Positions 10,314 through 64,000 of a DNA stretch of 64,000 nt are shown here, one piece after another. Within the stretch, counting starts at the first letter, position 1, and each line of letters opens with the position of its first letter. The notes below the pieces were generated by a model. That model ran no database searches. It was not told where the DNA came from and saw nothing but the letters and a program-made list of their open reading frames with translations. This stretch comes from Rhizaria sp. SCN 62-66 (lineage: Eukaryota). The stretch spans positions 1 through 64,000 of the forward strand of contig MEDY01000046.1 in assembly GCA_001724265.1 (NCBI GenBank). The letters are read 5' to 3'. A program made the translations under genes and the position numbers.

Positions 10314-10890
10314 CGGAACCTATTAGAGTTGGGCGAGCGGGAACAACAAGAAGGGGTGGAGATGTGAGACACGAATGAGACGAAATTAGACCGTTTGACA
10401 GGAGGCAATAATAAGGATTCAGAAATAACAGATAATCAAAATAGCCATTAGGCACATCAAAAAATACAAAAGTCGCGCGTTATTTCAAACAACGGTTGTA
10501 TTGGCGAGATTGACGCCGCAGAAGAAAACGAGTAACGTTCGCTTTCCTCAGCGGCTGGCCGGTTGGTTCGCGAAAAATCGGCTTCACGAATGCCCGTTTA
10601 CGCGAGACTTTGGACACATAGAAAGCTTCATTAGAGTACTACAATAAGATATTTAGCAAATGATATAGATGAAATCATTAGTCGACTGCTATGGGGCTAT
10701 GTTTATTTCCAATTATCTGTTGAGTATTTTTCCTAATATCCATCCGCCGCAACGACTGCAAACACTCACCAACTCGCTATCCAATTCACCTGTATTTCCT
10801 CTCTGCAGCCTGCATTACTTAAGGCTCTTGCTGTTTTCGACTGAACCATAACAAACACAGAAATCAAAAGAACCTTGCTGACCATAACAT

Positions 10891-18825: not shown

Positions 18826-19463
18826 GTCTGCGCACATTATTATGCACACTGCAACTGTTGTGTTACAGCCAGCCGACCAACTGCCTACTGCATATTGCAA
18901 GCTTCTGAAACTTCCAACTACGAAGAACACGCACTGTTAATATTATATATTCTTGTTAATTACTATTACTGAGTATCTCATTCAAGGTACGCAATACATT
19001 GACCATCATTTGTTATCTCGACATAATGTTACGCGGTGGTTATTGCAACGCTCTTCGAGGTATATCCTGATGTGATATGCTTAGATGAAAAAGTTTTATT
19101 ATGGGGTAGCTTTCTTCCGTTAGGCAAATATCAGTAGAGCATATGGGCTTTCGTTGTCTTTGTTTCGTCACGTACTCTTCCGATTCAGCTTTTTCACCAC
19201 ATATGCGTTTTCTGCTTTTTCGCAGCATCGTTCGTTCGTCCAGCTGCTGCATCACCTTGAAGGCAAGTTGGATCTTGACCTATCGTGAAACAAATTGAGC
19301 GTCAAAGTGAGTGTCAGATAGTGAAGCAAATATATTCGCAGTTTTATGCTATATTCAAATTCAGAGTGCGTTGGTGAATTGTTTTTGTAGCTGTATCTTA
19401 TTTTTCTCATCAGGCCTCTTAACTTGTCAAAAACATGCTTGCCCACTCCGAGAGAAGGAGCGG

Positions 19464-34395: not shown

Positions 34396-35430
34396 TTACC
34401 GCGCACCGAGGCAGGTGCGACCAGCATCAATCTTAACCGTGTCACCGGTGATCCACTTGGCCTTGTCGGAGGCGAGGAAAGCGATGAGCTCGCCGACGTC
34501 GCCCGGCTGCGGCAGCGCACCACGGTTGAGCGCGAGAGGGTGGGTCACCTGCTGCGAGCGCTCGAGAAACTTCTCGTACGCCTCGTCGCTCATACCTGCG
34601 CAACGAGGTACGGAGATCAACAAACATAAAGAGATGAGCGACTGGGTTTTGACAGACAGAGTATATCGTTCTCATATCTGATTCAATAATAATCTTACGC
34701 TCTAGCGAAGCATGAGAGAAGCGGGACGTACCACCAGTCTTCTGGAGGGGGGTGACGATGAGGCCTGGGTTGACGCAGTTGGCGCGGATCTTAAAGGGCG
34801 CAAGGTCGACCGCAGCGCACTTGGTGAGCATGTCGACGGCAGCCTTAGATGCGCAGTCTGTGAGTATGTGAGTAGCAATGAGAGGAACTTGATTAATGAG
34901 CATGGATGATGAGTGAAAGGGAATCAAATCTAAGGACAACAAAGGATGACGAAAAGAGCAAGCGCGAAAAACGTACACGCAGCAACGCCGCCAAAGGACT
35001 GCATGCCGTTGACGGAGGAGACGTTGATGATGGAGGTGCCGTCCTCGTTCTTCTTGAGCTGCGGAATTGCGTGCTGCATCATCTCGAACACGGCCTTGGT
35101 GTTGGCCGCGAACGTCTCGTTGAAACTCGCAAGAGTCGTGTTGTCAATGGTGCCGGCGCGAAGAATGCCGGCGCAGTTAACGAGCGTGGTGAGCCCGCCC
35201 AGCTGCTCGACCGCGGACGCCACGGCGGTCTCGCACGCACCGTCGGCAGTGAGGTCGGCGACAACGAAGCTGCAGCCGCACTCCTGCTGCAGAGCCTCAA
35301 GAGCGGCCTTGTTGCGGCCAATCGCGCACACAGTGGCACCCTCCTTAACCATCTCAAGGACGCTGCCGCGGCCGATGCCAGAGGACCCACCGGTGACGAT
35401 AACCTTCTTACCATCGAGGAGCTTGGACAT
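34396..35430 (-). CDS. Classical short-chain dehydrogenase/reductase (FabG-like); introns 34976-34858 and 34731-34596
   Basis: TGGSSGIG cofactor motif, VNCAG, NVSS, YCASK catalytic motif formed across the splice junction (T|AC), NCVNPG, WITG..IDAG. Stop TAA. Confidence 0.93.
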
Positions 35431-36017
35431 GTTGAACTTACTGTATCGCACAGTGAAGCTAGATTGTGAGAGATTTTCATGGAGTTGCACATCTTAATTA
35501 AAGATTATTATTTTTTGATTATTTTACAGTCACATAAAGCCATCAACGGCCAACTTAACGATTGAATTTCCGCGATATGCCCAGATAGTGTTTGACAACG
35601 TCGACCTTGAAACACCATCACCAGTCACCATGGTCATGACCAGTGACTGAAAGAGGAACCAACAAAATGGGAGCATATCATTCTGCGATTAAATATTCAA
35701 ATATGATCTCTGAGAATATATTTGGGGGTCAAATACTAATATACTATGGCTTATATTTTTCAAAACATCGTTAATTTGCGAGTTTACAGAGCAAAGCATA
35801 ACATTTTCGACTCGTTGGGTGCTTCAGCTCTCTAGTACATTACAGATCGCTTCAATATCATTGTACAAACATGCATTTCCCACTATAACTATAGATCCAA
35901 GTGTATCACCATACCATGCACGTGACTTCAAGTCACTACATCTATGTCCGTTACTTTCACTCAATATTTGTTCTCTTTCCATAATGTTACTCTACATCAG
36001 AGGCCCGCGTCACCACC

Positions 36018-39978: not shown

Positions 39979-41025
39979 TCAGCCCTTGTTTTCCGCAAAC
40001 GCCACAGGCGTCACGCCTCCCTGTTCCGCACTTGCGCCACCAGCACCGTTCGCAATGAGCCCCGCAACCCCGCGCGGGCCCGCGCCGTTCCTGCGCGAGC
40101 GCACGCGCCTAAGCTCGTCGAGAATCACGCTCGAACAGTCGTACATCTGGTCCAGGTACCTATGACATGCGCGCGCCCCCTCGGCGAGTCGCGACGTCGA
40201 GGGATCGAACAGCACCGGCGTGACGCACTGGCCGACCTGGTGCACCAGCTGGACGCGGCCCGTCCCGCCCTGTGCGCACGTCACATACTCGAAGTTGAGC
40301 TGCAGCGAGCACAGCCGCTCGCGCACTCCGCGCGACTCAGCACAGCCTTCGTACGCGTACAGCCGCAGAGCGCGGCGGTTGTACAGACTCGGTTGCGCGT
40401 AAAGCCCGTACGGCGAGAAGCCGCGGAGCAGGCAAACAAGCTTGGCCGTGGTGCGCGTGCCGCCGGCGCCCGCGAGCGGCGGGCCCATGTTGCGGTGCGC
40501 TCCCTTGCGCGCGTAGGTCGTGTACAGATACAGTAAGATCTCGTCCGTGTCACCCTGCAGCACGATGTTGGTGTTGGGGTCCTCCAGCAGCGGCAGCGCG
40601 TCGGAGCCGGTCGGGGAGCGCGCAATGAGGTCGCCGCGGAAGCGCGCGTCGACTGGCATGGTGAGGAGCGCGCGCGCGGGCGCGATGAGAGGCAGAGGGA
40701 AGACAGACACGGCGATGTCGAGCACGCAGAGGCACTCGCGCACGGGGATGCACGCCGCGTCAAGCTCGCGGTCAAAGAGGATCAGCGGGCGCAGCGGGCG
40801 CTTGCGGACGTCAGCGACGAACGAGCCCGAGAGCAGGCGCACCAGGCACGCGAGGTACGCGGTCGAGGGCGCGACTGCGGCGGCGAAGAGGGTGACGGCG
40901 ACGACGATGGCGAAGTCGCTCCAGTCTGACAGGCCGAAGATGGCGGCGTAGACAAGCGCGATGGGGATCGTGAACTTGGCCAGGGTGAGCGTGTGATCAG
41001 CCATCTCGTTGCGCTCGGAGGTCAT
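39979..41025 (-). CDS. Protein with two tandem GST-N/glutaredoxin-like thioredoxin-fold domains and an N-terminal hydrophobic (TM-like) region
   Basis: Repeat 1: PLILFDRELDAACIPVRECLCVLD..PLLEDPNTNIVL..ILLYLYTTY. Repeat 2: LRLYAYEGCAESRGVRERLCSLQL..PVLFDPST..YLDQMY. May have an upstream exon. Stop TGA. Confidence 0.7.
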   Translation of the reverse strand: MTSERNEMADHTLTLAKFTIPIALVYAAIFGLSDWSDFAIVVAVTLFAAAVAPSTAYLACLVRLLSGSFVADVRKRPLRPLILFDRELDAACIPVRECLCVLDIAVSVFPLPLIAPARALLTMPVDARFRGDLIARSPTGSDALPLLEDPNTNIVLQGDTDEILLYLYTTYARKGAHRNMGPPLAGAGGTRTTAKLVCLLRGFSPYGLYAQPSLYNRRALRLYAYEGCAESRGVRERLCSLQLNFEYVTCAQGGTGRVQLVHQVGQCVTPVLFDPSTSRLAEGARACHRYLDQMYDCSSVILDELRRVRSRRNGAGPRGVAGLIANGAGGASAEQGGVTPVAFAENKG

Positions 41026-41421
41026 GGGGACGGGGCAGCGAGCGGGCTCACACGTGACAGACGCGGCCGGCGGGGAGACCGTTCGGGGGGAACGCTAAGC
41101 ACTATGAAAACAATGTAGAAGGTTTGTGCAAAGAGTCTTGACTACAGACAGTTGAATAGATATTAGCGGAGATGTGAGCAGGACTCGGTTGTCAAAGACT
41201 ATCCAGGACAGCAACCATAATAAGACGCCGCCTCCAGAGCGACGTTTCCAACTGCTAGGTGCACTCCAGACCAAGCTGTCATGCCGCTTCAAAACATTAT
41301 TTCAGAGATGCAATAAACAGAATATATCATTATTGCATCAGTGTGCATTATGACAATTTGATGGAACCACTGACGATCAAATCCTTGCACACTCTACTTT
41401 TTCTCGTTCAGATTCGGTGAC

Positions 41422-44013
41422 ATGCTGTGTGCGACCCATAAGGCCGCAGTTGCAGTACACCGCGTAACGCCTGCTGCTCGGCGCATAACACCTAGCTCGC
41501 TAACATCCCTCCATCGCGCGTCGGCGCCAGCGTCTTTGTCCAATAATTCCCGTCGTTAGACTGGACGCTCGTTTGATCTTGCATCGGTTGATGTGAGCGC
41601 ACTCTTCGCGTCCCCACCCAACGCAGGCTCCGTGCTCGCCACAGCCGTGGCGCTGCGCGACGGAGCCCGTTCAGTTGGATTTCTTTACATCAGCAACTCC
41701 CCGCTTACTGCGCACATCCCGCGTATTCATGCAGCGTCAGAGTGGTTCTTCGCGCTTCCCGACGCCGCGAAGGCTGCCGTACGCACTGACAACGCGCAAC
41801 GCGGCTACCACCGCTTCCAGGGCGCGCCGCACTCAATCTCCGCCGCTCACCCTGACTCTGGCGCAGACAGCGCTGCGGTCCCCACTCCACTTGCGGGCGC
41901 GACGCAGGATGGGATTGAGGCGTTCACGGTCGCGAACGACACAGCGCGCGTCGATGAGCTCCGCGAAGGGTACGACCAGCTCGCACTGCTGTCGCCGCCG
42001 CGCCTCGCGGCGGCGGCCGCGGCAGACGCGCGCGACCCTCAGCCACCGGCTGTGCTAGCGCGCGCAATTGCCGGCCCCGCGCAGAGTGTCGCGCGCGCAG
42101 CGAGCGCTGGCTTCGGCATTGCAGCGCCACTGTCCTCAACGGGAATGGCAACGCCGCTGCAGGGAATCGCAGCACCTCTCTCCGCTCCGATCACTGCGCC
42201 GCTATCGACGCCGTCTGCCTTTTTGCATGCGGGATTCTCTGCGCCGATCTCTGCACCGGCAGCGTTTCCTGTATTGAGCGACGCCGCGCGTCATCAACGC
42301 ACACGTGCTGCGGCGAGTGCGGGCAGCGAATCTTCTCTCAGTGAGTCGACTGTCACCTCTGCCGCCGCTGCGCCTGCCAGGACAGTGGCGACCTCAGGCC
42401 GCCTTGCTGACTTGTGCGACGAGGATGACGACGAGGCTGATGCGGGGGGTGATAGCGGCGTTGCCGTGCCGCTGGCAACGCTGTGGCGGTCCCAGCACGC
42501 AGCGGCGGGTCTGCCCTTCGCTCCGTCCGTCTCCGGCGGCGCTGCACAGTCGCTCGCGCACTCACCTGCTTAGACGCGGAGCCCGATGCCTGTGGCCTGC
42601 AGCGGGCTGCCGTTCGGTGTTCTCGCGCCGCTCTCTGCATCGACGGTCACTCTGAGTCAAGCTGCTTCACCGCCCGATCACAGTCAGCGCGTCCCAACTG
42701 TAAATGCGACAGGAGTCTCGCGTGGAGGCAACAGGTGGCCACGCGCCAGTCCCGCACCGCCCGCCCTGGCTATTCCTGCGCTCAGCACCACAGAGAAACA
42801 ACCCGAAGACGTCTGCAACAGCGACAAAAGCGACAGTACAAATACAGGAAGCACCACGGCTGCGTCTGTGACACAGACTGGGGATGCTGCTGCTGTTTTC
42901 CGCAGAGTGCTAACGGAGTATTACGACGCGTGCGCTGATACAGGCGACGTGCTTTCAGCGGCGCTTGCGTTCTCTCTTTCTCTGCCGCCTCGCACTGCGA
43001 CTCCGAACACCGCCACCGCTGCCATGGTCACGGATGCCGCCGCGGCAGTGGCGCCATTGATGCGCTTTCTGGGACGTCGTGGCTGCTCCAACGCTAAGGA
43101 TCTTGCGGCAGGAAACATGGGCGATCGCCCGTGGGACCGCGCTTGGGAGCGCGTGCCGCTTGCGCACAGCCGCCGCGCACACACTCTGGAGCTCAAACGT
43201 TACCCCGATCCTGCGCGCACGCGTATGGGGGCTGCAGCCCACGCCGCGTTGCCCACAGCCGCGGGACGCAACGCAGGTGCTGCCAGCGCAGAATATGCAC
43301 TTGCTCCGCTTGACTCGGACAGCGACGACTGTTCGAATCCTCGCTCTCACAACGTTATCAGTGGCAGTCAGGCTGTTGGCGCGGGCCCCGTGGCGCTGCG
43401 CATGCCGGTTCACTCAGACTTATCGACGCTTACGTTTTTGCTCCAGTCACACGACCAGGGCGGACTCCTTGTGTGCGACGCTGGAATTGGTACGAAATCA
43501 TAGAATAATGTGCATGCAGTCTGAATCAATTGTACACCCCCGTAATCCACACTACCTTTTAAATCAATGTGACACTTATCTCCTGTCCCACGACTACTTG
43601 TCTGTTCAACGCTTGTAGACCAGTGGCTTCGCGTGCCGCAACGCGCAGGCCACGTGCTAGTGAACACTGGGGATTTTTTCCGTTCCTGGTCGCGAGGGCT
43701 GCTGCCATCAACGTTGCATTGTGTCGCCTCAGTCCGTTCAAACTCCGACATCCCTAGCAGTTAGATTGACAACACCACAAGTGCGGTTTCTGGTGCAAAT
43801 AGTGTCTTCCGTGAGCGACTTAGCACGGTCTTCTTCTATCAGCCCGACATGGACGCAATTGTCGCTCCGCTGCCCGAGGCTAGCTTCCACCCCGCCAACC
43901 TCTCAATGACAAATGGCCACTGCGGCGGCGATATCGTCAGTGGGGTGGCGGCAAAAGCCCGGAAGCTCGAGGAAGTGTTTTTAGCTGGAGATCGTTATCC
44001 GTTTGTTGAATAA
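41422..44013 (+). CDS. 2-oxoglutarate/Fe(II)-dependent dioxygenase (IPNS-like) with Ala-rich insertions; three in-frame TAGs (41557, 42571, 43762); intron 43490-43618
   Basis: DIOX_N-like region (SVDVS..VGFLYISN..FFALPDAAK..RGY). HxD in PVHSDLSTLTFLLQ, GGLLV, then after splicing QWLRVP..VLVNTGD..STLHCV..RLSTVFFYQPD (distal His and RxS). Stop TAA 44011-44013. Confidence 0.85.
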
Positions 44014-44911
44014 TGCGCAGCGACTTTCTTCTGCGTCAGGTAAAATGCGAAACACTTCCGTGATCCTGAATGACCTAAACTAGTTCTGAGTGCCCCCTGT
44101 TTTTAACTGTATACTGCATATTTTGTGCGAAACTTGGTACATTTATTAATAAAAGTGAATTAACATAACAAATGGGCACATTTATGATATATTCCAGAAA
44201 TATATTGAATGTATTGCGTTGTTTTGCACTTGCGTTCGAAATGGGTCTTCGGGGTAGTAAGTGTTAACATCGGGAGATTACGTATTAAGTCGATAGGAAT
44301 ATTGCATTGGATGCATGAACGAACAGCTGATTTGGGGGGGAACATAAAAAAATATAATTTAATGAATTTAGGCAACGCATTCACTTGCTAATGCAAGATG
44401 AACGAAAGAGGTGCATGTTAGCACCGGGTGTCAGTTGTGTTGTTTGGGTACGGATGTCGGTTTCTCTTCTTAGAAACTGACATTACGCTTAAATTGAGCC
44501 TCAAGCTCAATGTCAAAAGTGTTATATCATTATGATACAGTTTTTATACACTCTGCCAGTATGCAAAGTGGAGACTGCATGTTTACTGTGCTGGGAGTCG
44601 CCGATGCGATGCTCCACAGTCAAACGCGCCAATACAATCGTTTCCGACATCGCGAGTTAAGAGTCAAAACTATTGATCAGTCACATTTGTGATCTCAATC
44701 AAGTTGTGTGAATACACGAAAACACATTTGTTTCTCGTAGCTGCAGCGTGTGTAGAACAGCAACTGCAGGCTTAGTTGTAGGTGATGAGTATTATAGCCA
44801 ACACAAAAACGAAACTATCGTTTGGCGTTGGGCGAGCGACAAGCCACAAAGTCTGTGCAAATTTCAGCCTGTGCATTTGTGAAGTAAGCTCAAATAGTGT
44901 CACCATGCCGT

Positions 44912-47900
44912 TTACTTGTAGCGCCTGACAATAGGGCGGAGCTTGCTCGAAAGCTTTGCATCCTCGGCCTTGAGTAAGTAACGCTTGACGAACTCTTCCT
45001 CTTTCATGAACTCTGTCTCCTTGGCGGGGATCTTGATCGCATCTTCGGCCACAAAGACGGCAACCTTGCGGCGCACATCCTCCAGAGCGGCATCAAGCAA
45101 GGCGAATACGCGTGTCCTGCGACGCTTGAACCGAAGCTCTGCCATGAAGGCATCGGAGATGTAGTAGCACTTCTCGCGGTTCTCGTTGCACGCAAGCACG
45201 TGAGCGTGCGAATCACCAGGAGTGTGGAATTTCATACACACACCGCAGAAGTCGTGCTTGCAGCTACCGCAGCGCACGGCGGCGCAGTTGGTCCAGTCAT
45301 ACACGATGACCTGACACTCAGGGTTCGGGCACTTGTCCTGCTGCGCGTCGCGAATCGCCGCCAAGAGCACAGCATTGCTCTCCTCCACGTCAGCGCTGTC
45401 GGCAGCGCTACCACCAACATTTTGAGTAATGTTACAAGTCTTGCAGGAGAACACCTTGGCGCCACCAGCTATATTGAATCAAGAATCAAGATTCGGAGGA
45501 ACAAGAAGTGATTGGTGAGAGGATAGGATTGTCAAATATCTCTGATGAGCTAGACATGTAAATAGGGTTCTTTCGGTATGGTCTCATTGATAAAAATAAA
45601 ATTACATCCAATCATGTAAACAACGTACCCGCAGGAGCCAGAGCATTTGCGCGCTGGATTTCAGGGCAAGTGTTTGTGGGGCACTTGACAAATGCGTCCT
45701 TATTCTTGAGCAGGTATTTGTCGCGCGCCCACCGGAGCATCGCCTCAAACTCACCGGGGCCAAATGCGGCAATGGGGATGTCGCGCAGCGGCAGCTTTGC
45801 CTTGCATCCTGCGGCGCAGCAGTTGCACCCATTCTGCTTTAGCTGGTTGACAACATGTGGGAGGCAGTCGTGACACGCGACGTGATTGCACACACTTGAG
45901 GCCATGCCCAAATTCTGACGCAACACTTCGTCGCCGCAGTAAGTCAAACACTCATTTCCAGTCAGCGCATCAGTCTTTTGGGTCGTGTCGAGCATGTCAC
46001 GCGACTCGAGGGCCTCCTTCAGATTGGAGACGTTTGTGTTGGAGCCTGACACAAGATAAATGTCGTTTCGTGAGGCATTTTGCGTTTTTCCAGAGTAGAT
46101 ACTCTCGACCTTGCTCTTCTTTAGCAGCTGCTCAACATCACTCGCTTTGGCAGTGCTTTTAATCTCAATTCGGTTGTCAACCCACGCAAAGTCGGCGAAC
46201 TTTGTGACTAGTTCTTGAAGCTTAGCCCGCATTGCGTTGCAGCATGCTGCACTGCCATACATGTCGATCGAGTTTGCTTTGTGATTAATCTCAGCCCACA
46301 CAGGTAACTTTGACTTGAACTTTACTTGCGCTCCGTGTTTACCCTTATCGGCATCTTTGTCTTTGTTGATCTTCTCCGTAGTTTTCTTGCTGCGAAATTC
46401 CGTAAACAGCCCGCCAAGCTGACGTGTACCGTTTGCACCGGTGAGGCGTGAAAAGACGTCGATTAGCGCGCCCGTATCTCGCTTGACTGACTCGACACGG
46501 TGAGACACAAAGACAAACTCGTTCTTCATGTACTTCTCAGCAGCTTCAATGGCGGAGTCATCACCTGCCACAATGATGGTGTACTTAGAGGAGTTCTTCT
46601 TGTTGCCGTTCCTGCTGTTAACATCAACAGTGGGTAGAATCTTGCATTCCGCGCCCTTGGTGACAGCAGCCAGCTCTTCCATGACCTCATCACCCATTGA
46701 GGTACCCACCTCAGCAGGTAGCACAATCATCAGAAGCGGGCACATCCGCTGCTGAAGACTGCGGCCAAAGTGATTGGTATCGAACATACTCCCCGCGGGA
46801 AACTGTCCATCAATGTAGGCGTACTGACGAGGGTTGTTGCCCTTACGCTCCACAGCCACTGCAACCTTTTCAACAGAGTCATGTGCAAACGCGGGCGGCA
46901 GCTCGAGACCACCGGCCGCGGTGGCAATCCAGCTCGCCTCGCAGATCTGATCCCTGCGAATAATTTCGATGCCACATGCAGCCTCTGCAATTGCCACAGT
47001 ACCAGCCGCAGACTGAGAGTAAGCAACTGTGCAGCCTAAGCGGCGCAGCACTGAGTGGTTGTGCAGCACATAATACAAAAGCGCTGCATCTCCCCTCGAG
47101 GCGCAGGTTAGTGTCGCTGTAGTGCGATCGGGGTTGTTTTCGTCGCGCTCAAACGTAATGGTGGGAACCTTACTGTCGTAGTTGTCGGGAATAAAGAAAT
47201 CGCGGAACACCTCTTCGTCATCGTACTCGTCAGGGGTGTTTGCAGGGATGTTGGACACTGCCACCAAGGCAGTTTCATTGTCGCACAGAAGATCGAGCAC
47301 TTCGAGACCGGCACCACAAAGCAGAGCGACGTTGCCCCCGACGTCCATCTGACGCACTTCGACAAGCTTGCGTCCGTGCACCGCTTGGCGAAGCTTGTAA
47401 AACGCGAGAAATGCCAGATCGGCGTTGTTTTTGGGTGCACGAACCATGACACCAGATGCGTCGATCACAACCGTGCAGTCGTGCTTCTTCTCGAAACGTT
47501 CGCGTGCCGCCGGAGTCGGGAACAATGCGTCTGACTCGCCAAGGTTAAGCGTGTAGAACTTGCTTTCTGTTGCTGTCTGATGAGCCAAGGCATGACACTT
47601 CTTGTAGAAGTTTGGACTATATTTTACAATCCAGTCCAGCTCAATGGGCACCGGCGGGGTTGTGACAATGCACTGACCGTGAGAAGCGTGCGCGGACACA
47701 TACACAGCCCACTGGCTCAACCCGCGAATCTCAGCGGGAGACTGACGGCGCCAGTTAATCAACGTCTTGCCACTGCTTGCGCTCGTGTAGTACGCATGGT
47801 TGTTGTTGGTTAACCCCGCGTCGTCGTTGAGCTTGCGGATGGCGTGAGTAAAGTACCCTGCTGCAACGCACTTGAATACATCTTCATCGCGAATGTTATT

Positions 47901-50699
47901 AATGTTGACCATCGCATTCATGAACAATAGATTAAAGCTTGAGATGTGTTGGGCCATATGCTACTCCTTCATAAAAAAGCTCGTGAAGTTCTTAATCATG
48001 TGCTCAATCCAGTTGTGAGCAAGCAAAAAGTACTACTCCGGCAGTTTAGACTTCTTGACCTCGAGACTACGCTGCTGTGGCGATGTTGCCGTACGCCAGG
48101 CCACAATTGCCTTCAAGCACGCTTCGACGCCGATTGACGACTTCTTTTTGAGACTCTCAACAAGATCATCTCCGAGCACAACATCGTCGTTGACTGTCGC
48201 ATCTCCATCTGACACATGGGCGATGAAACCTGGGTTCGAGAGGTGAATGTAGTGAAGTGCGGCAGCAACAGCAGCACCAAACCCGAGATTTTTAGACTTA
48301 CTGCCCTCAACGATCACTTGAGTAAGCTCAATGGGACAGCCTGTAGCAACGCTCATCCTGCCGATCTCAGTAGTCATGAGAGTATCTGGGTGAATTGCAC
48401 CGAGTTCACACAGGTCCTCCATCGCGTGCTTCACTGCATTCTACGACGGTGGATCAAACCAACGGAACTCACTTGGACTATGGCCCAGGGATGCGAGACA
48501 CAGCACCGTCGTTTGCAGCGGTTGGCACAGCACTGCAGCAACGTTTGCTGGGGCAAAACGCTTGAGCTGGTTGTGACTATAGAGACGCACACAGTGGCCT
48601 GGGCGAGTACGGCCAGCGCGACCCTTGCGCTGCTCGGCCGAGGCCTGCGAGATAGACTTCAGCGACACGTGCGCAAGGTGCGTCTTGGCGTTAAACTCGC
48701 TGGCGGAACGCAGGCCGGGGTCAATGACCACGGTCACGCCGTCGATCGTCAGCGATGTCTCGGCAAACTCGGTCGCCAGGTACACGACGAACTCGTTGTT
48801 CTTGTTCTTGTACGCTGCTACTTTGCCCCTGCCCCTGCCCTTGTTCCGCGCGCCGCCCGCGGGCTTACCTGAGCTGTTCTCATCCTCATCAATAGACCCG
48901 AGGTTGCTTGCCGGCTCAAGGTGACCGTCAGCATCTGTCATAGTGACTATGGTGAAGGTCGCATCATTGGGCATCGAACGCGCAATTGTTGATCGCTCGA
49001 GTAGCCGCTTGGCTTGCTCGATGTGACCGTCAGTCGGGAGGAACACCAGAATGTTGCCCTTGAGCGGCCCGCACAAGCTGCCACGCAAGCAACTTGTAAT
49101 GTTTGACACAACCGTGCTTGCCAGGGTGGGCCCAGTAAAGGGCACGGCAGGCGGCACGTGCATGATGTCAACCCAGTTGCGTTGGTCTTTGATGTTAACC
49201 TGGCCAACGCAAAGCGCGTTACCATCGCGTGCAAAGTAGTCGCTGAACGCCTTCGAGTCAATCGTAGCCGACATGACGACAACCTTGATGCCCATACCGA
49301 CAGCTTTTGAGGCGAGCGACAGAAGGATGTCGCTCTCGACAGTGCGCGCATGCGCTTCGTCAAGCACAATACACCCGACTGTCGCATCAGGAACAAGCGC
49401 ACCTTCAGAGCCTAAAGCGCTGTCGGTTTTTCGCGATACTGCAACACGATACGCGTTAATGACGTCCATCTCGGAGGCGTACGCAATGCGGGTGCTGTCG
49501 CTTGCACCTTGGCAGTCGGCGCCGAGGAACGCCACGCCCGATGTACCATCCTCGGCCTTGGCCCCCTGAAGGGTGATGCCGTTGCAGCCATGGATTGCGT
49601 TTTCGTCGCCATTACTTAGGCTCTTCAACAGCCCATGCACACGAAAGCAAGATCCATTGAAGATATTGCGGACGTACTTGGATAGTTCTTCAGCCGCCAT
49701 GCGGTGCGGCTGCGTACACAGCACTGTCTTGCCACGCATGAATTCGAGATCGCTGACAAAAATGGGCACCTGCGTGCTCTTGCCACAACCGGGTGCACCC
49801 GTGACAATAATGATGTCGTTGTCAGTCACCGTGTCCTCAATCTCCTTGCGGTGCCAGCGCACAGAGTGCTCGCCCAGCAGCAGGCTTGCCTCACGGCGAA
49901 GGTAGCGGACCATAGCCTCATCGCTCAGCTGCGCATTGCGTGCTTTAGACACACGCGCGTTAAGGTCGTTGGTGTACTAGTCAAAGCACACCCGCAATGC
50001 GTCACGGTCTGCGCCACGCAACGTTGACTGCGGGCTAAAGTAGTTCGAATGGACTGTCTCACAGATCGTAGCCAACTGGACCTCTGCATGCTTGACCAGC
50101 TGTGCAAGAGGAAGAGTGGCAAGCTTCTTATAATCGTATTGCTTGGCAGGGCTGCGAAGGATGTTCGCATTGTTGTTGCGATCGTTACTGCGGTTGTTTG
50201 CACGTTGGTGGTCACTGCGTCCATGGCCGCCTTCACTGACACGTTCGCGGCGGTTTCCGCGGTTGTGGGCGCTGTTTTCAGGATCACCACCGTCGTTCAC
50301 AGCACCGTTCGAGCCGTCGTCGAAGTCGTCGTCGTTCCCCTCGGGTGTATTGCGGGGTTGACCAGGAGCGCCCCGAGCATGACGAGTCTTCTGGTGCTGG
50401 CGCCGTTCACGCTCGTTCTTGGCGTTTACCGCATCTTGATAATCCGGGTCATCTTCGTGGATGTAGGAACACATCCATTTCTTGCCACTGTCGCAGCCGC
50501 GACGAGTATTGTTGCGAGAGCAGATCAAATGCATAGCGGTGTGGCGGTAGATGCACGTGGAAGCATGCGGATTCCGTGCCAAACAAAGGGCCTTACGGAT
50601 ATATGGACATAGCGGGGTTTCATGCTCGGTGCACCTGGAGTTGAAGCAGAGGCGGCCTTTGCACTTCCGGGCTTCGCCAGGAGGGCGTCCAGAACTCAT
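44912..50699 (-). CDS. CCCH-zinc-finger + DEAH-box RNA helicase + RBR (RING1-IBR-RING2) E3 ligase fusion; four in-frame TAGs (49979, 48443, 48035, 47963); intron 45628-45469
   Basis: GAPGCGKSTQVP, CTQPHRMAA, DEAH, MSAT, LVFLP, LATEFAETSLTIDGV, SQASAEQRKGRAGR, FDPPS..DLCELGAI (HA2). RING1: CLTYC..CNHVACHDC..CCAAGC. IBR-like: CPTNTC..CKTC. RING2: CPNPEC..NCAAVRCGSCKHDFCGVC. Five ORF-track pieces join into one frame. Stop TAA. Confidence 0.88.
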
Positions 50700-51233: not shown

Positions 51234-54200
51234 TTAGTCCATCGGCAGAATGGCCTGATGGACGTCGCTCAGAGGCTCTCCCTCGTTGCCACATCCACCG
51301 AGAACCCACAATGCACCACCTTGCACTAATAGCATGGGATCTGTGCGCGGCGTAGGCACAGCCGCACCTGGCGCCGTTGCAGCTACGACCCACGCCATGG
51401 TGCGCAGATCCAACACCTGCAGACCTGGCGCCATCGCGCCTATTGCTGTCTGCCCACCGAACACAAGTACACGCGCCCCGTCAGCCACAGCGGCGGCGCC
51501 AGTCAGCACGCTTTCGGTTCTGACAGCCACGCTTGCGTTCGTGCCACCCATACGATCATTGCACGCCGCGATGACGGAGGCGCGTGTGTTGACTGTGCGG
51601 TGCTCAAGCCAGAGGGCTGATCCTGCGTAACGGCCAGTGACCGAGTCGATGTCGAGTCGCAATTCGTACACAGCTGCCGCCGCCGCAGCACCAGGGGACC
51701 GCGCGCCAGCGACAACGAAGACAGAGCCGCCTGACGACACAACCAGTGCGCCGATGTGCGCACTAGCCGTCGAGGGGGACGGCGGGGTCGCGGTCGGATC
51801 GCCACCCGTCTTGCTCTCATCCTCCTGGCCGGACGCGACTGAGGCTAACGAGCGCGGGCGAAGAGGGCCAGTTGCGCTGGCGGCTGGCTTAACGCGCACA
51901 GAGAGCTCGCGCCAGCCCGCAGTCGGGACGCGCAAGTCGAGCAGCCAAGAGGCCACGGCGTCCGAGGCAGCGCCGCCGGCAGCTGCGATTGTGACGAGGT
52001 TGGAACCGACCCGGACGGTGCGGCGCTGGCTGCATCCAGGCACGGCACTTGCAGGTAGCGTGATAACAGAGACAGCGTTGGTGGTGAGCAACACCGACAC
52101 AAGAACAGCGGCGCCGGTAGCTGCGTCTGAACCGTCAATAAAGAGCTTGCCAGCGTCGTAGTAAATGCCCGCGATATCGAACGGCGTCACGTCCGACGTG
52201 ACGAGCGACACAGTCCGGACACGTTCCTGAGCGTTGAAAATCGACGAAGTACCTGAAGAAGATGCGTCCGCCAACGAAGACGCTGCTGACTTCGGTGCTG
52301 CGACGGTGCCCATCACTGTGATGGCACGGGGGTCAAGCTTGAGCGAAGCACGCGGCGAAGCGCTGCGGTGCAGTACGACGGGCGACGCGGGACGAACCAC
52401 AAGCACTGCCGAGCTGGGCAGTGCGTCGCGCTCGTCGTTGAAAGCATCTAAGGACGCGTTACCACCGCTGCCGTCGTTCTCGTCGTCCAGTGCGATGGCG
52501 CCGCGCGGGGCACGAGCAGGCGGGTCATCGGCGCCCGTGCCGTACGTGCGACAAAAGAGAGCGCGCTCGGGAGTATCCATGTTGGGCATCCAGTGCGACA
52601 TCGCAGTTGACTGCAGCGTCACGACGGCCCAGGCGACTGTTGTCCCAGATCCCATCGCGGTCGTAGCACAACGCACTGAATGTACTGCAGTCAGCACCGC
52701 CACGCCGTTTGGTGTAGCAGTCGCAAAAGACGGCTTTGTTGTCATGCCACCCGTTAGTGTGTTCGAGCGACTGCGATCTTTGATGGCTGGGATGGAAGTC
52801 GCCGTGGCGGCATCCGGCATAACGCTGACGATGGGCGCCGAGACATCGAATCGTGGTGTGAAGACCATCGATGCCGGTTGCAGTGGAGGGTACAGTGTCG
52901 CGAGCACGGGGGTCGACTCAACACCCAATGTGTCAACACTTAGCAAACGTGGTTTCTCACTGTCGCTGTCGCGAGAATTCTTACCAGAAACCAACGAGAT
53001 GGCACGCTTCAGGAACGTCATCTTAGGACGCGCTGCCTCTGCCAATGCAACAGCAGCAGCAGGATCATGAATCAGCTGCGGCAGAGCGTGAGGCGAAACA
53101 GAGACGTGACGCACGTCAAGCCGGCCCCAGTCGCGACTACCCCCGATCTGGACTACGCCGCGCGAGAGCGCCAGCAACGGCGCGAGAGTGAGCATGCTGG
53201 TGACCGGACTTGGCACGTCAGCAGTGCCAAGAGCTGCAATGAACGGGCAGTTGTTAACGACGACGCCCTTAGGACAATGTGGTGTCGCTGCAGCAAGCGG
53301 CGACAGTGTCACAGGCACTCCGTCCAGGAAGACGCGGAACATGCGTCCCAGCGGCGTCGCGCGGCTTTCATTGAGAAGTGTCCCAAACCTTCCGGTAACT
53401 GTAAGCCGATGCCACGTGTCGAGCGCAACCGTGGGGGCTGCCATGTTGTTGTCATCGGCCGCAAAGCGGTACGCAGACGCACCGGCCCAGTCAATGCGAC
53501 CACCAGGGTGCACGGCAAGCACAGGAGGGCGTGCGGCGTCGCGGAACATCCGCACACGTGCCTCCTCGGAGAGTGAGTCCTTCTGAATGACGATTGCATG
53601 ATCCATGCGCGAGTAAAGCGAGGGTGCGCCCTGGTGATTAGCAATGTCAGACTCAGTTGCGCCACATGACACGCCGAGCCCAAAGCTCAACAACGGGAGA
53701 GCGAGTGGACCTGGGAACGTAACTGCGCCCGACGCAGCCGAGACGTTGGATCCACCCGTGTGTGTGACTGGGGAGTCAACAGGTGACGACTGCAGCTTGA
53801 ATTCAAGGACGATTGTGTACTCGCGCACCGCAGCGTAGCGTTCACGAGCATTACGCATGTTAGCGAGATTGTGAGCCCATCCTAAGGCGGAGTACTCGGA
53901 CAAGGAGTGCAGTTTGTTAAACCATTCAGCTTGAACAGGCACGAGCGAATCGCGCACCGAACGCGCACGTGGGGCTGCCGACAGGGCCGAGCTCGTTGGA
54001 GGTAACGCCACAGACAGGAACTCCCCTGCGCCAAGTGATGCCACGAGCCGCGGAAGCGCGGGGATACCTGTCGGCGCCACACCGCTTGTGTAGGCGACGG
54101 GTGCGTTCCCTGAAGTGTCGGCCATGTAAGCCAGCTGTACTTGCTGGCGTGCAACACGCGGAGGAATCACGGCCGGCTGAAACACGACGTGCGGCGGTCC

Positions 54201-57200
54201 GTGCGACGCTAGTCCAGCAAGCAGGCCCATCGTAGTCGAAGGGACCGAGCTCGCGGTGCCGAGTGGAGCGGTTACATGCTTAGAATACTGATGGATCTCC
54301 GAGAACGACCGATGATGAGCGCCGCCACATGCAAAGATGTGACGCGCGCGCCGCGCGAGGCAGTACGGCTGAGGCGCAGTCGGCGATACAGAAACCACCG
54401 CAGGCGGCTCGTTGTAAGCGCCAATCGTTCCAGGTGGCGGCGGTGGAGGCGGCGACGTAAGCGAAGACGAAGCCGGTGCCGGCGGGAAAAATGCAGCCTG
54501 CGGTCCAGACGGGGGCGTGATCGCACGCAACTGGCCCATCATGCGCGCGAGTGGGTTATAGGGGTCTGGGGTGCGGTCGACATCATCCACTGCAGGGTAG
54601 GCTGGCGCAGCCTCTTCGGGCGGAGTGGAGGCGGGGGCTAGAACAACAGACGCGGCAGAACCCTCGAAGGGCAAGCGGTCTTCGGCAACATCAAGGCACG
54701 CGCACTCGCCAGCGCGTCGGATCCCCGGACAGTCATCGTCGGCATCACTCTCGGTGTCACTTCCAGAACCACAACCGCCATTGTTATCGGCCATCGCAAT
54801 CAGATCGTCATCAGCAACGACCTTGACGCGATACGCTGGCTTCGGAGCAGGCTCGTCCTTTGCATTGCGCCATGTCGCCAAGTGTGCCGACCAGTCCAGC
54901 GCGCATACTTCGTCCACACTGGGACGAGCTCCCGGCGAAGTGCTACCACAAACGGCCAGTGTAGAAGCCAGTTCAGGCGCAGCATGCCGCAGGAGCGGAC
55001 CGTCGGGCACACGCGCAGCGGGCGGACGAACACGCACGGTTGCTGGCAGACGCAGGAGTGAGCGTGGCGCGAATAGAAGACTGCGGGGAATGAACATGTA
55101 GCCAGTGCGCGCATAACGTTTTTCTGCGCGCAAATCGGAGGCACGCGAGAAGGTCGCAGCCAGCGCCCATGGAGACATGCTCAAACCGTGCGCCAGCCGC
55201 TGCCAACGCAGCGCTGAGGCTGCCGTCTCCACAGGGCACGTCTCGGCTGCGGCAGCGTCAGCGAGCCGCGGAGCAGAGAAGGCGGCTTCAAGAGGCATCG
55301 ATGCAGGGAGCGGCCTGTCTGCGCTGATCTCCGTCATGGGCGGGGGAGGTGGCACGTATTTCATCCCAGCACGCGCAGCAGCAAGTTGAGTCGCGGTGTT
55401 ACGTGGCGCAGACGAGAAAGCCGGCCGGACGAAGACAACCGACTCCGTCCACGTAGCGTTCTGCACCTGCACACGCTTCGATACTTCATCCTTGCCTTTG
55501 TTTGCTGGTTTTGCCTTGGAAAATGACACCACTGTTGCATTTTTGAATACTTCTGCAACGCCACCGCCGCTAAGAATAGCATCAGCAACTTGATGCTTGT
55601 CGAAGGAGCCGAAGCACTGCATAAGCAGTTCCGGTGGGTTACGGATGATGTTGGCAAGGAAGTTGGGCGAGATGTAAAACTGCTTTAAGTACTCCGCGTT
55701 CAACGACGTCAACAGCATCGCTTGCGGAGCAGGACGGTCAGCATCACAAACCTGACACTTGCGGGCCTCTAAAGGGGACTCCGCATAGGTGCACACAAGA
55801 CAAGTCCACATCTTCGATGCGGTCAGAAGGCGCGAGCGGTGAGTCGCAGTGACTTGCATTCGGACATCACATTCTGTTTCCAGTCGCCGTTTTTCAGCAG
55901 CGGTGCGCACAACACCCATTGGCAGAGGTTGTTGCACCGGCTTGGATAATACCGTTTCGACAGTCTTCGCGGTGGGTAGCGTGGGATAGATTGTGTAGAC
56001 AGCAAACGGGACCTCGCTCCCGATGCCTGCTGAGCGCAGCAGCTCACCCGCAGACGGCCCTGCCGCAAGCGCCAAGTGCTCCCAGTCAAGTGCGCGCGCG
56101 CGAGAGATCCGTGAACCGGCACAGCGGCGCCGGGATTGCATGCGCAGATGGTTGCTGGCAATGAAGGGATGGACCTCGCGTGTCGGCGCAGCGGACACGG
56201 CAATGCTATACGCGGGAGGCGGTGGGAACGAGGTGTCCTGAGTCACACGCGCGGTGACTCTGAGCGCACCATCAGGCACAGCATCGGCGACGCCCGAGTC
56301 ATACGTAGGCGCTGGCGCCGACAGCGTTGTACTCAGATTGTCCACAATAATCTCTCCTGAAGCAGCGGTCCGCGCACGCGTCGTAACCACGACATCATCT
56401 AGCTCGTCGTCTGAAGCAAAGTCCTCCTCATGTACCGGCGTCTGTGCAGTGGCGTCGACTCTGAACGGCGTTGGCGCCACACCCGAGAGCGACGACGATT
56501 GGGAATCAGCGGAACGCATGCCAGAGACAGCTAACGGTTCGCGTGAACCAGAGAGCACGCCATAGACGCGCGTGAGCGGCATCTTGAATGGCGGCGCTAA
56601 CGTTGCGGTCACAGTCAGCGCGGGTGAGATAGCGGCCTCGCCCGCACGCGGCGCACCTGTGCCCGCAGCGTGCAGAGTGCGCGTGTAAGGATGGGGCTCG
56701 AGCGGAGCGCTTGACTCAACAATGTGTGTGGAGTACACGGTGGCGGGCGGCAGGGTCGGAAAGTCGATGGGTGCCGCACAGAGACCAACAATGCCGACGC
56801 AAACTGTGGACGCAGGAACGGTAGAGGCGATAGCCTTCTCATCGGGAACATTCGCTGCGCGCGCAAAGCGGCCGAGGCGTGCAAGAGCAGCCGCAGTCAC
56901 GTTAAGGACACCATGCGCTGAACCCGTCCAGCAATCCGGTAGCTGGTGGAGCGGGCCGAGACGCAGACCGTTGCGAGTGAAGAAGACGCGGTTCGTGTGC
57001 GTGCAGTAGCCAGCGCCAAGTGTGGCAGGCAATGCAAAGGGCGCACAATACTGGACGGCAACCTCGCGGCCGGCGTGGCGGAAAATTAAGACACCGTCAC
57101 AGTTCAGGGCAACAACACCATCAGTCTGGTAAGCGGGCAAATACCGTGCGGCATGTGTGGCCGAGCCGAGAACAACGCCTGTCGTGACCATAATCGCAAT

Positions 57201-60200
57201 GTAGGGGCGTACACCACGACCACGCTCGACGTTGTTGTCGTCATCAGCTGCAGTCGCACTCGGCGCCGCAACGGTGACACCGGGCAGCGAGCCTGCAGCG
57301 CGCCGGCGCGTGGAGGCCAATGCAGCTGGGCTTTTCTCTGCTTCCGTCAAAGCGGCATCCGAAGTCGCGCCTGTCACGCTACTTGCTAGTTTTACGGCCA
57401 TCTTATAGAAACGATTCTTGATAGTCCCATCAGTTACGGCTTGATTAAGTTTCTGAATGGACGCAAGCATACGAAATCGCATAACGGATCCCTCAGCTTG
57501 AGGTGCAGCGTTTGACTCTTCCTCTTCCTCTTCGTCACTACTGTCGGAGTTTCCACCCGAACGCACATTGGAAACTGGAGGAGCGCCAGCATTAGAAAGT
57601 GCGACCGCAACTTCTTCCTTACGCGTGACGTTACCGCGGCTGTCGTCATGTGCGGCCAGTTGAGTCATCCGAGTCACGCCGTCGGTGACGGGCGTGGCGT
57701 GAGCAATAAAGGGCAGGATCGTCGCCTCGAAGTAGACGTACCCACCGCAGTGGGCAGCAGGGAAAGCCTTTGCGGCAGCCTCTGCCTCATCCTTGGCACC
57801 GGCGCCGTCCCAGTTCGCCGACAACAGCTGCGCCGGCACGCCAGGAAGATAAGGCAACGGCGTCGCCGTGACGAGGTTCACGAGTGACGTCTGCGCGCGG
57901 GCAAGGCAGTGCGTGTAGCTCTCAGTCACAAAGTGCACCGGGACCTTGTACGCCTGCATGTGTTGCGTCCAAGGTGCGGAACGTGGGCCAGGCGAATACA
58001 CGCTGCTCCACAACGCGATCATGTTCGTGTTGGCGCCAACCGCAGCGGCCCAGGTGAGTTCCATCATTGCCAGCACGCGGCGGCGCAGGTCATCTGCAGA
58101 CTGCCGGCGCGCGACAGCAGCGTTAGCAAGAAGCTGGGGATAAGTGCCATCAAGAACCAGGTTGTACCCATTTTCACGCATGATGATGTCCGACTCAGCT
58201 GTCAGTGTCTGCGGCCACATCATCGCAGCGTGCAGTGCCGCCTCACTCACCGGCGCCATCAGTGCACGATCAACACGGGTCCACAAATAACGCGGTTCAC
58301 GGCGATTGCATGCAGCCTCATTGCTCGCACTATTAGAGGACGCATCATGAGTCAGGTTTTCGCCCCAACCGCCAGACTCCTCCTCATTGTCGTCATGCCT
58401 TTGATTGTTTGACCGACGCTTAGCCACAATAGCATTGCGAATGCGCGACTCGTTCGCAAAGTGCAGACTAATCTCGTTCTTAGCTGTAACACGGGACTTG
58501 GTCTCGCTATCTGAGCGCTGGGTTAGATCCTCATCCATCAGCGTGCGCATCGACGTCACAGCTAACGCTGCGGGTGTGGGGATTGGCCGTGTCGTGCGAA
58601 ACGGGCGCATCACCATCGCCGTGCCGCGGACAACGGGTGCTACGAGCGAACGCATCGTCTGCGCAGGAACAACAATCTGTGCGTCGCCGCTGGGCATCGC
58701 CACACTGGTAAGCGCAGATGTTGACTCAAGCACAGTCAGGTAGCGACCACCGCCGTCTACTGGCGCGCGGCGGCGCAGCAGCAGCCGGGGTGCAGGCGGA
58801 GAGATGGCAGAACCAAGCGGGGGCGCGCGGATGCCAGCGCAGATAATCATCGACTGCTCCATGGCGCAGGTTTGATACATCTTGATAACCGCAATGCCAT
58901 CGATGAACACAGTTAGAGCACCGTTGATGTTGTCCGTCGTGAGCGTGACAGAGCTGCGGGACGTGAGCGGTGGGAGGCGTTTCGAGCACAGATCCTTGTC
59001 AAGGCGCAGATGGGTCTCCATGCCACTGTTGTTGTTGTTCTTGTTGTTGTTGCGCTTATTGTCATTAACCTTGGTACTCTTGACCTTGGTCCGCTTAAAT
59101 CCTGAGAATGTGTTGGCGATCATCATCTTCATTTTTTTCTCGACTGAGTTAAACATCGAAAAGACACCGCTGGATTTCTCATCGTCCTCCTCAATTTCAG
59201 GACTGCTTGCATCATCCGCTGAAGGCGGTTCAAGTAAAGCTGCGACAGTCGCGTCTACAGCCGAGATGCTCCCACACGGTGCGAGCTGAGCTGCACGTTT
59301 AAGCACCGATGTTGCGATTTCAATGTCAGGTCCTACAAAGGCGTGGCCCGTTGACAGGATCACAACGCCATCTGATGGGGCACGCGCCCACGGCAAGCTA
59401 TTCGTTTGCGGGGACACAGAGGAAGATGCAGGTCCAGACAGTGACGAAGACTCAACACTACTGCCATTAGCCAATCCGTCACCGTTGGGCTGCGTGATCG
59501 TGTGCAACGCGGATAGCGCCGCGCCAAGCGAGCTGCCCGCATTAACACTCGAATGCCTAGTGCTATGATCGTCGACAGCAATCCCACTTGGTAGGGGTAA
59601 CAACGCGATGAAAAAAGACGGAGCGTCCGCAGCCGAGATCGCGTCCTCGTCAGCACACGCATGCTCCTGACCCTCAGTTGTAACCCAAGACACTGGTACT
59701 GTTGTGCTTGTAGGTAAGATATCAACCGTGAAAGAGGAGAACAGATTGCTGTGCGAAGCGCCATTCATTGCAGACGCAACGTGCCAGCTCCCGGGTGTCG
59801 CGGTGGGCGCGAGAGAGAGCACGCTGCCTCCGGGGGCAACCTCGACCGACAGCTCGACTTGTGCGCTCGCAGCGATCGCAGGAGCAACCGTTGGGACAGC
59901 CCATGAGTGCGCGCGGCGGTCAGTCTCGATGTTGGCCTTTGTCACAGCAGGGTCTTCGGCGACCACAGTTAAGTTAACAGAGGGCACAGATGAGTCCATG
60001 TTTGCGCAAAGCGAGCAGCCGAGTGAGAACTCCATTCCGTTGGGCGGGTGCGCGAGCTTCAGAGGACATTTGCTTGGCCGCGACAAGATAGATGTGCCAA
60101 TCCTGGCAAAGATCTCTTCTTGCGACTTCAGCTTGCCGAATCCGGAATAGTCTGTCTTGAGAATCTTCTGCACGTCGGGGTCACACTGACTCTGTTCATC

Positions 60201-63200: not shown

Positions 63201-64000
63201 CATCTCACCGACGGCAAAAAAATTGGGCGTCGTCAGCTTGGCGGCAACGAGTGGCCGTGTGACATCTGTGTCAAGCGCCATGGCAACCAATGCGGGGCGC
63301 GCGCGAGCAACTGACAACGCGCAATGCCATGCACCAGCAAGCGCATCTGTGTTGGCTGCAGAAACAACGGCCTCTATAGCACGCTCGCGCATCAATGATC
63401 CCGGAGGCGCAGTTGTTGCGATCGTCGGCAGAAGCAGCGTGCCAATCTTCTCGTCAGCAGCAGAGGCAGGGTCAACCTCAGGGGAGCCAGCACCGACAAC
63501 TGTTGCAGCGGTTTTGGGCGAAGCAGCTGCCTTCGGGACAGCAATCGCAGTGACATGAAAACGTGCGTCCGCAGCAATAGCCAAGTCGGAAGGTAACGCA
63601 CGTGACTGGATTTGGACAAGTGCTGAAGCTGCAAGGCTTCTAGCAGGTGCGTCCACTTCAGGGTCATCGTCAGAGGCGTCCGACGGTGGATACGAACACG
63701 AAGGAACAACATTCACCTTTGCGCGCGCATGCGCAGTCGCGACGGCGGAGGCACCCGCATAGATGGCATTTGCGGATGCGACCGTTGTGGCCATATCTGG
63801 CAGTGCTGACACAAACGCTCCGTGAGCGACCGCTTCCAGCATGAGACTCGACGTCGATAAGCGCGAATCGCTGGCGATGTTCGCGAGCGTGGCCTCCGTC
63901 ACTGGTAAATCGGCAATGCGTCGATTCTTGTCTGCCAGTGTCGCCTGCGCCACAGAGAAAGACGTCACTAAAGCGGGCAGTGGATTCAGCGCAGGTACAT
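51234..64000 (-). CDS. Giant (>4200 aa, 5' end outside the window) E3 ligase: IBR-like domain + MYCBP2/Highwire/RPM-1-type RING-Cys-relay module + SPRY + RanBP2-type zinc finger + LamG-like + Kelch-like repeats; one in-frame TGA at 60257-60255
   Basis: SCMKLLSCGHFCRGVKDE..CPPCL; RING CSVC..CGHTFHYEC..W.G.RMSFDFLGCPVC; CHRCTKPYFAGARNC; CKKHGTDFISWKCRFCCNIAVFFCF..HFCQ*CHD; CPLKLAHPPNGMEFSLGCSLC. SPRY: YFEATI..VFFTRNG. ZnF: WTCLVCTY..CQVCD. Kelch-like: VLVFGG..LWVLGG. Frame open to the window edge. Stop TAA. Confidence 0.8.

Follow-up and report, generated by a model that had tools for sequence, protein, structure and literature searches.

We analysed the first 64,000 nucleotides (nt) of contig MEDY01000046.1 of Rhizaria sp. 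SCN 62-66 (the window; all positions are numbered from its first letter), which carries a predicted Fe(II)/2-oxoglutarate dioxygenase gene at 41422-44013 with three in-frame TAG codons. On the comparisons described below, it is likely that the organism translates UAG as an amino acid, with UAA and UGA kept as its stops. It was shown that TAG codons lie in frame in at least three genes of the window, that each takes up a single alignment column, that they are the only interruptions and that they are common to strains; the translation of these codons, a mechanism through transfer RNA (tRNA) and release factor, and organellar targeting of the dioxygenase are what we infer rather than observed. 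Under such a code a cytoplasmic tRNA with anticodon CUA would decode UAG, on which the release factor would no longer act efficiently, and 41422-44013 would encode an intact, spliced protein of 820 residues. Each TAG of the gene would add one residue, in a presequence, in a disordered insert and in the loop from the distal His to the RxS motif. The data support an effect that is window-wide rather than specific to the dioxygenase gene.

The dioxygenase gene

The window is eukaryote-like: its coding blocks are GC-rich (0.6-0.75 GC), and the spacers and short introns between them are AT-rich. It was confirmed that 41422-44013 is a two-exon gene for DIOX_N and a 2OG-Fe(II) oxygenase, with the following features (X4 and X7 are sequencing runs described below):

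41422-43489, + strand: exon 1, with an Arg/Ser/Ala-rich leader, DIOX_N, long inserts of low complexity, and HxD within the N-terminal half of the 2OG-Fe(II) fold
41557-41559, + strand: TAG 1, codon 46, inside the basic leader
42571-42573, + strand: TAG 2, codon 384, in a low-complexity insert; CAG in strain X4
43411-43413 and 43417-43419, + strand: His and Asp of HxD, exon 1
43490-43618, + strand: predicted intron of spliceosomal type, 129 nt, AT-rich, phase 1, GT..AG, donor GTACGAA, acceptor TGTAG
43619-44013, + strand: exon 2, containing the distal His and RxS in the remaining half of the 2OG-Fe(II) fold; TAA stop at 44011-44013
43717-43719, + strand: distal His (H33), exon 2
43762-43764, + strand: TAG 3, in a variable loop between the distal His and RxS; retained in X4 and in an X7 contig
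43816-43818 and 43822-43824, + strand: Arg and Ser of RxS (R66, S68), exon 2, downstream of TAG 3

Exon 1 ends in ...GGLLVCDAGI plus one G, and across the junction the split codon G|AC gives Asp; splicing yields a frame of 821 codons with the stop counted. Removal of 43490-43618 gives back the GGL-(10 residues)-W spacing of homologues, and the donor GTACG is also found at the intron of a CPSF73-like gene in the window. Exon 2 reads QWLRVP...STLHCVASVRSNSDIPSS[TAG]IDNTTSAVSGANSVFRERLSTVFFYQPDMD...RYPFVE followed by TAA, and the predicted peptide around one TAG is DIPSS-x-IDNTTSAVSGANSVFR, where x is the TAG codon. An earlier note on this stretch had placed TAG 43762 between the distal His and RxS, had given ...VE-TAA as the end of the last exon, and had described an intact RxS downstream of that TAG and two more in-frame TAGs, at 41557 in an Arg/Ser-rich, presequence-like leader and at 42571; all of these proved correct, and with the codons of HxD, distal His and RxS located, its statement that all catalytic residues are kept also held.

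The same note had proposed a profile hidden Markov model check of the read-through product. When Pfam was scanned exon by exon with TAG masked as X, both expected domains scored above their gathering cut-offs: DIOX_N (PF14226) with 35.6 bits against 27.3 at exon 1 residues 57-133, and 2OG-FeII_Oxy (PF03171) with 28.2 bits against 23 at exon 2 residues 2-75 (profile positions 50-101 of 101), the latter match running across TAG 3. Frame and domains continue past all three TAGs, with Pfam matches on both sides.

The HSD at 43411-43419 aligns with MPVHSDLS of two homologues, P0246 and P0001. Exon 2 was aligned with 12 of the 29 homologues from an exhaustive HMMER search, and H33, R66 and S68 were invariant in all 13 rows. 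The spacing from His to RxS differs widely among these homologues, and TAG 3 therefore lies in a variable loop; production of the RxS strand nevertheless still needs read-through of this codon. A profile of exon 2 and the 12 homologues matched 86 solved sequences at E <= 1e-3, with thymine dioxygenase 5c3p the best (E = 1.7e-45) and 85 others behind it. The gene product is thus probably an ordinary DIOX_N-type (IPNS-like clade) Fe(II)/2-oxoglutarate dioxygenase, as it has both the HxD...H triad and RxS, in common with thymine dioxygenase, ethylene-forming-enzyme-like proteins, TraH, ACC oxidase and IPNS. Unlike those DIOX_N enzymes, the predicted protein has about 400 low-complexity residues between DIOX_N and the catalytic fold, a 32-residue His-to-Arg loop and an N-terminal basic leader.

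Exon 1 has one orthologue, P0001 (555 residues, 39% identity), the sole match among 8,000 scored candidates. Its architecture is that of the window gene, with a basic leader, DIOX_N, low-complexity PxS-rich inserts and MPVHSDLSTLTF, and the end of its open reading frame (ORF) coincides with the exon 1/intron boundary of the window. P0001 aligns on either side of TAG 2 in one high-scoring segment pair, and the columns based on it hold approximately S at TAG 41557 and T at TAG 42571. Basic leaders were also found upstream of DIOX_N in P0001, P0246 and P0248. The first 49 codons of the window gene contain seven Arg, one Lys and no Asp or Glu, and Met is absent between TAG 1 and the DIOX_N domain; the leader of P0001 places the coding start of the dioxygenase upstream of TAG 1. 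In composition the leader of the window gene resembles a mitochondrial presequence, and the enzyme is probably targeted to the mitochondrion.

In-frame TAG codons in other genes

The gene next to the dioxygenase, and a third one, likewise contain TAG in frame:

45612-50699, - strand: gene of 1,695 codons and a TGA stop for a protein with zinc fingers, a DEAH helicase and a Cys-rich C-terminus
First base 49979, - strand: helicase TAG, one alignment column; aligned residue Gln (P0003) and Asp (P0004), gap-free
First base 48443, - strand: helicase TAG, one alignment column; aligned residue Glu (P0003), gap-free
First base 48035, - strand: helicase TAG, one alignment column; aligned residue Glu (P0003), gap-free
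First base 47963, - strand: helicase TAG, one alignment column; aligned residue Cys (P0003), poorly conserved stretch
21366-21368, + strand: in-frame TAG of a third gene (ORF 19311-22358), followed by 330 more open codons of about 67% GC

In the helicase the N-terminal zinc fingers are CCCH-like and the Cys-rich C-terminus is RING/IBR-like. TAG 49979 precedes the entire helicase core, and the motifs GAPGCGKST, DEAH, SAT and QRKGRAGR are all intact. Two orthologues were recovered, P0003 (1,119 residues, 44% identical), whose cluster variants are nearly identical and add no information, and P0004, from a closer relative (472 residues, 63% identical). The ORF of P0004 both starts and stops within the conserved gene, ending ...PISKASA just before motif VI; this extent fits in-frame stops elsewhere in that relative, and an intron there is also possible. 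The database copy of the window's own helicase consists of three separate ORF pieces of 503, 129 and 781 residues, split at TAGs.

The two flanks of TAG 48443 align without a gap to solved Prp43 and DHX helicases, and in a 14-sequence alignment with generic DEAH helicases the column of this TAG is mostly Pro. TAGs 48035 and 47963 lie in an insert without counterpart in the generic DEAH helicases, and a PDB search with this sub-region alone gave no match. A correspondence of TAG 48035 with the conserved acidic residue of the WCxENF motif had been considered, but it was not reproduced by MAFFT and was dropped. In the region of motif V, nine differences were found in contigs of other organisms in all four runs compared, and all nine are synonymous third-position changes, a pattern that shows that the protein downstream of a TAG has long been under constraint.

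Stop codons across the window

In 15 coding segments of the window (15,152 codons) we counted nine TAG, no TAA and one TGA in frame; because TAA and TGA served to delimit the ORFs, the absence of the former and the near-absence of the latter arise partly by construction. Three of the nine TAGs are in the dioxygenase, four in the helicase, one is at 21366 and one near the end of the IPP-2 gene, and further possible in-frame TAGs are at 17080 and 26449. What is informative is that one frame without TAA or TGA extends over each GC-rich coding block, apart from a single TGA in a giant gene. In the two other frames of the same segments there are 49 and 49 TAG, 35 and 115 TAA, and 215 and 340 TGA, that is, 250 and 455 TAA plus TGA per 15,152 codons, and at this frequency an 820-codon frame without both is not random. 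The 15 ORF ends examined, a small sample in which two (g28k and g30k) are uncertain and lie in AT-rich sequence, comprise seven TAA, eight TGA and no clear TAG, and GC usually falls afterwards. The IPP-2 gene is ambiguous, with TAG nine codons before TGA.

The giant gene (51234-63998, - strand) has at least 4,254 codons, continues past the window end and contains no in-frame TAG. Just upstream of its TGA it has zf-RING_11 and zf-RING_2 matches, and at the C-terminus a weak Kelch-repeat match below the cut-off. The TGA at 60255-60257, in the context ...FFCFASVHFCQ[TGA]CHDNYSRH..., is followed by 3,006 open codons; the codon is TCA (Ser) in runs X4 and X6 and TGA in X3 and the window, and it is probably a young nonsense allele or a heterozygous variant. 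Selenocysteine at this position was considered and found unlikely, as other strains have Ser and not Cys and the window holds no match for a selenocysteine insertion sequence (SECIS), Rfam having returned no match at gathering thresholds in the 64 kb.

Most genes of the first 40 kb have a GC at third codon positions (GC3) of 0.74-0.87, gene 19311-22358 one of 0.66, and the dioxygenase, helicase and giant genes (41000-64000) values of 0.59-0.63. Seven of the nine in-frame TAGs are in these low-GC3 genes and the other two in genes of GC3 0.66 and 0.74. The possible TAG at 17080 belongs to ORF 10888-18825 (+ strand, 2,645 codons), which is Ala-rich, carries repeated GGFSFGFSDP motifs (FG-repeat-like) and has no Pfam match; the codon lies in GC-rich sequence between two similar KKDxKEKGE motifs. 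As to introns elsewhere in the window, that of the CPSF73-like gene (6843-6980) is about 138 nt long, AT-rich, starts with GTACG and ends with TATAG, and a look-up of the protein gave generic MBL/beta-CASP clusters. An SDR gene at 34396-35493 (- strand) apparently has two more introns.

Strains and RNA libraries

The stretch was present at 0.85-1.00 of sampled words in four runs from three studies. X1-X3 are labelled bioreactor or wastewater metagenomes (X1 may be the window's own source), while X4 has no organism label and a sister run of its study is labelled activated sludge. Contigs of X3 are identical to the window and those of X4 differ at about 0.3-0.5% of positions. At 42571 X4 has C for T, making CAG (Gln) of TAG, at a depth of 6.89 of 6.89 in one contig, and it retains TAG 43762. 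The strain counts that follow are among the differences listed, and 46 further differences exist. None falls on 47963, 48035, 48443 or 49979 in X4, where one difference is unlisted in each of the two covering contigs. In the helicase four are synonymous and five non-synonymous, and in the giant gene three and three, plus the TGA site; for these genes, as for the dioxygenase, so few differences do not suffice to show constraint. In the non-coding DNA of the 20 kb compared, one indel stands against 11 substitutions, the sole indel being an insertion of 13 nt in X4, TCTTCGGGGTAGT, after 44245 (intergenic), beside matching window sequence.

A metagenome scan with exon 1 returned one contig alone, L001, of 2,856 nt, which is identical to window 42345-45200 and not independent, and genome-contig scans with P0001 and P0004, together with viral-contig scans, found no DNA of relatives. 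Contigs of the poly(A) RNA library X7 cover 41001-41592, 41770-42171, 43232-43542 and 43531-43889 of the gene region. The last of these, which may be DNA, keeps TAG 43762 and has a single difference, at 43556; no joint of 43489 to 43619 was reported among the X7 contigs compared, which are possibly DNA. One X7 contig of 1,339 nt (40254-41592) covers the 5' ends of two divergent genes and the spacer, which suggests DNA carry-over or overlapping transcription in the library. Run X6 is labelled RNA-Seq, is flagged as probably DNA and barely overlaps the dioxygenase gene.

Weighing of the explanations

Seven TAGs and no frameshift were found in 2.46 kb of the dioxygenase and 5.09 kb of the helicase. 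In a one-step model on window codons 3,450 of 136,368 paths, or about 2.5% of point changes, lead to a stop, and indels do occur in the non-coding DNA; neutral decay should therefore give at least as many frameshifts as nonsense codons. The absence of frameshifts is a stronger argument than the TAG-only pattern, and with no gene clearly ending at TAG and at least three of about 15 genes affected, decay is unlikely. The view of the earlier note that TAG is translated is probably right, supported as it is by the TAGs in other genes, the gap-free columns, the terminators, the lack of frameshifts and the CAG of a strain.

Several observations weigh against a sense UAG. The TAG-only pattern is weak alone, as 60% of one-step new stops are TAG and nine of ten gives a p of about 0.05. 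The CAG/TAG polymorphism at 42571 fits a young nonsense mutation equally well, and the polymorphic TGA/TCA of the giant gene means that real nonsense alleles may exist in the population. TAGs are spread unevenly: the dioxygenase has three in 820 codons and the giant gene, whose GC3 is similar, has none in 4,254, although part of this unevenness is selection bias, the dioxygenase having been picked for its TAGs. Besides TAG>CAG, the listed strain differences in the dioxygenase are three non-synonymous and no synonymous ones, a count that does not show purifying selection on this gene. The X7 contigs run colinear to the genome, also across the intron, and could derive from DNA or from unspliced RNA. 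Finally, a search of the 64-kb window for tRNA genes found none.

It is unlikely that TAG is mainly a stop that is read through by a near-cognate tRNA (e.g. tRNA-Gln or tRNA-Tyr), in a leaky or programmed manner or under a context-ambiguous code. Such readthrough would agree with the rarity of TAG (nine in 15,152 codons), its uneven distribution among genes, the TAG of the IPP-2 gene, which nine codons ahead of TGA could be a true stop, and the T-TAG-A context common to all three dioxygenase TAGs. However, three or four events per messenger RNA at ordinary efficiency would leave almost no full-length protein, the bases at position +4 of the helicase TAGs differ (T, A, T, C), and no gene clearly terminates at TAG.

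Of small probability as well is the proposal that the dioxygenase and the adjacent helicase are pseudogenes or nonsense alleles, with TAGs arising mostly from CAG>TAG and similar changes. The share of TAG among one-step nonsense mutations in these codons, the CAG of X4, which could be ancestral, the nonsense variant of the giant gene and the three non-synonymous differences of the dioxygenase all speak for it, as does the clustering of TAGs in two adjacent genes. Yet it would have to account for seven nonsense codons without a frameshift over 7.5 kb, though an indel is seen in the neighbouring non-coding DNA, in genes with all catalytic and helicase motifs intact and interrupted by TAG only. 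It would also leave aside the third gene, where an in-frame TAG is followed by 330 open codons, and the 15 examined ORFs, none of which ends at TAG, and it would require at least three of about 15 genes to be dead in a compact, gene-dense region.

Correction of the TAGs in RNA, by A-to-I editing of UAG to UGG (Trp) or by U-to-C editing to CAG, is very unlikely. A-to-I editing of premature stop codons is reported from some filamentous fungi, editing would likewise keep genes under selection and free of frameshifts, and position 42571 tolerates Gln, as seen in the CAG variant; but Trp stands at no TAG column, where the residues are E, E, Q, D, C, T and S, and X7 contig 43531-43889 keeps TAG 43762, although this contig may be DNA.

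That the TAGs lie in unrecognised introns and are spliced out is scarcely credible, for although known introns of the window end in TAG (TGTAG 43618, TATAG ~6980) and T precedes all three dioxygenase TAGs, the helicase TAGs are in gap-free orthologue alignments, GC around TAGs 41557 and 42571 is 0.58-0.72 (0.50 at 43762) against AT-rich introns, the only in-frame candidate (GTACG 41779 to an acceptor at 42573) would remove the conserved block NAQRGYHRF, and 33 nt, the length that an intron around TAG 3 would have, is far below the 129 and ~138 nt of the introns seen.

The residue encoded by UAG

If UAG is a sense codon, its residue would be polar, Gln or Glu, and the evidence is divided between these two. 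About seven aligned residues are usable: at TAG 49979 they are Q and D, at 48443 E, at 48035 E, at 47963 C, at 41557 approximately S and at 42571 T, and neither Leu nor Trp fits them. By our own BLOSUM62-type estimate, which is not the output of a tool, Glu is several-fold better supported than Gln by the columns E, E, Q and D. Gln has on its side the TAG/CAG polymorphism and the prior given by known cases; it is the commonest reassignment according to PMC11687900.

Relation to known codes

In the nuclear code of Iotanema spirale UAG encodes Gln and the main stop is UAA (Panek et al. 2017, PMC5304391). Like that code, the one proposed for the window would have UAG alone reassigned, UAA and UGA as terminators and Gln as a candidate; unlike it, Glu is an equally good candidate here, and whereas Iotanema is an anaerobic fornicate, the window encodes a predicted O2-dependent dioxygenase with a presequence-like leader in GC-rich genes. 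Rhizaria sp. exLh (Sainouroidea), in which UAG is read as Leu (PMC5304391), resembles the case proposed here in a UAG-only reassignment in a non-ciliate protist and differs from it in the residue, as Leu is ill-fitting for window columns E, E, Q/D, C and T and a strain variant CAG.

Phyllopharyngean ciliates translate UAG as Leu or Gln (Gln twice), with UAA the preferred stop (McGowan et al. 2024, PMC11687900). They share with the case proposed for the window the reassignment of UAG alone, the discovery in metagenome assemblies and the expectation of a suppressor tRNA(CUA) (PMC11687900), and are set apart from it by the window's coding DNA of 62-75% GC, introns of about 130 nt and contig family of up to 172 kb. 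Peritrichs and Blastocrithidia nonstop read UAG or UAR as Glu, with UAA also reassigned (PMC11687900, PMC12153298), and one ciliate gives UAA and UAG separate amino-acid meanings (PMC10553269). The window is like the UAG = Glu codes in that Glu is a candidate, and unlike them in that its UAA ends at least seven ORFs and is never in frame. The two residues of the ciliate with separate meanings for UAA and UAG are reportedly Lys and Glu.

Codes in which UAG and UAA are uncoupled are described from one fornicate, one rhizarian and a few ciliates (PMC5304391, PMC11687900). A UAG-only assignment to Glu with UAA and UGA as stops found no description in the literature searched, in which UAG is read as Glu only where UAA is reassigned as well, and a UAG-only code in a GC-rich non-ciliate from wastewater found no report in the full-text literature searched, whose coverage is incomplete. 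It is a tentative possibility that the window represents an unreported, non-ciliate, GC-rich lineage in which UAG alone means Glu and UAA and UGA are stops, and the case may also belong to a lineage that has already been described.

The case would be a known kind of code change, and its interest is in the code and not in the enzyme. Nuclear code changes are rare and the uncoupling of UAG from UAA is rarer still. Since standard gene callers split genes at TAG, the proteome of this organism would be mis-annotated in public resources, and the dioxygenase should be annotated as an intact gene and not as a pseudogene. If true, the reassignment would be a further independent case, in a GC-rich uncultured eukaryote met repeatedly in wastewater and bioreactors, and thus a data point on stop-codon capture.

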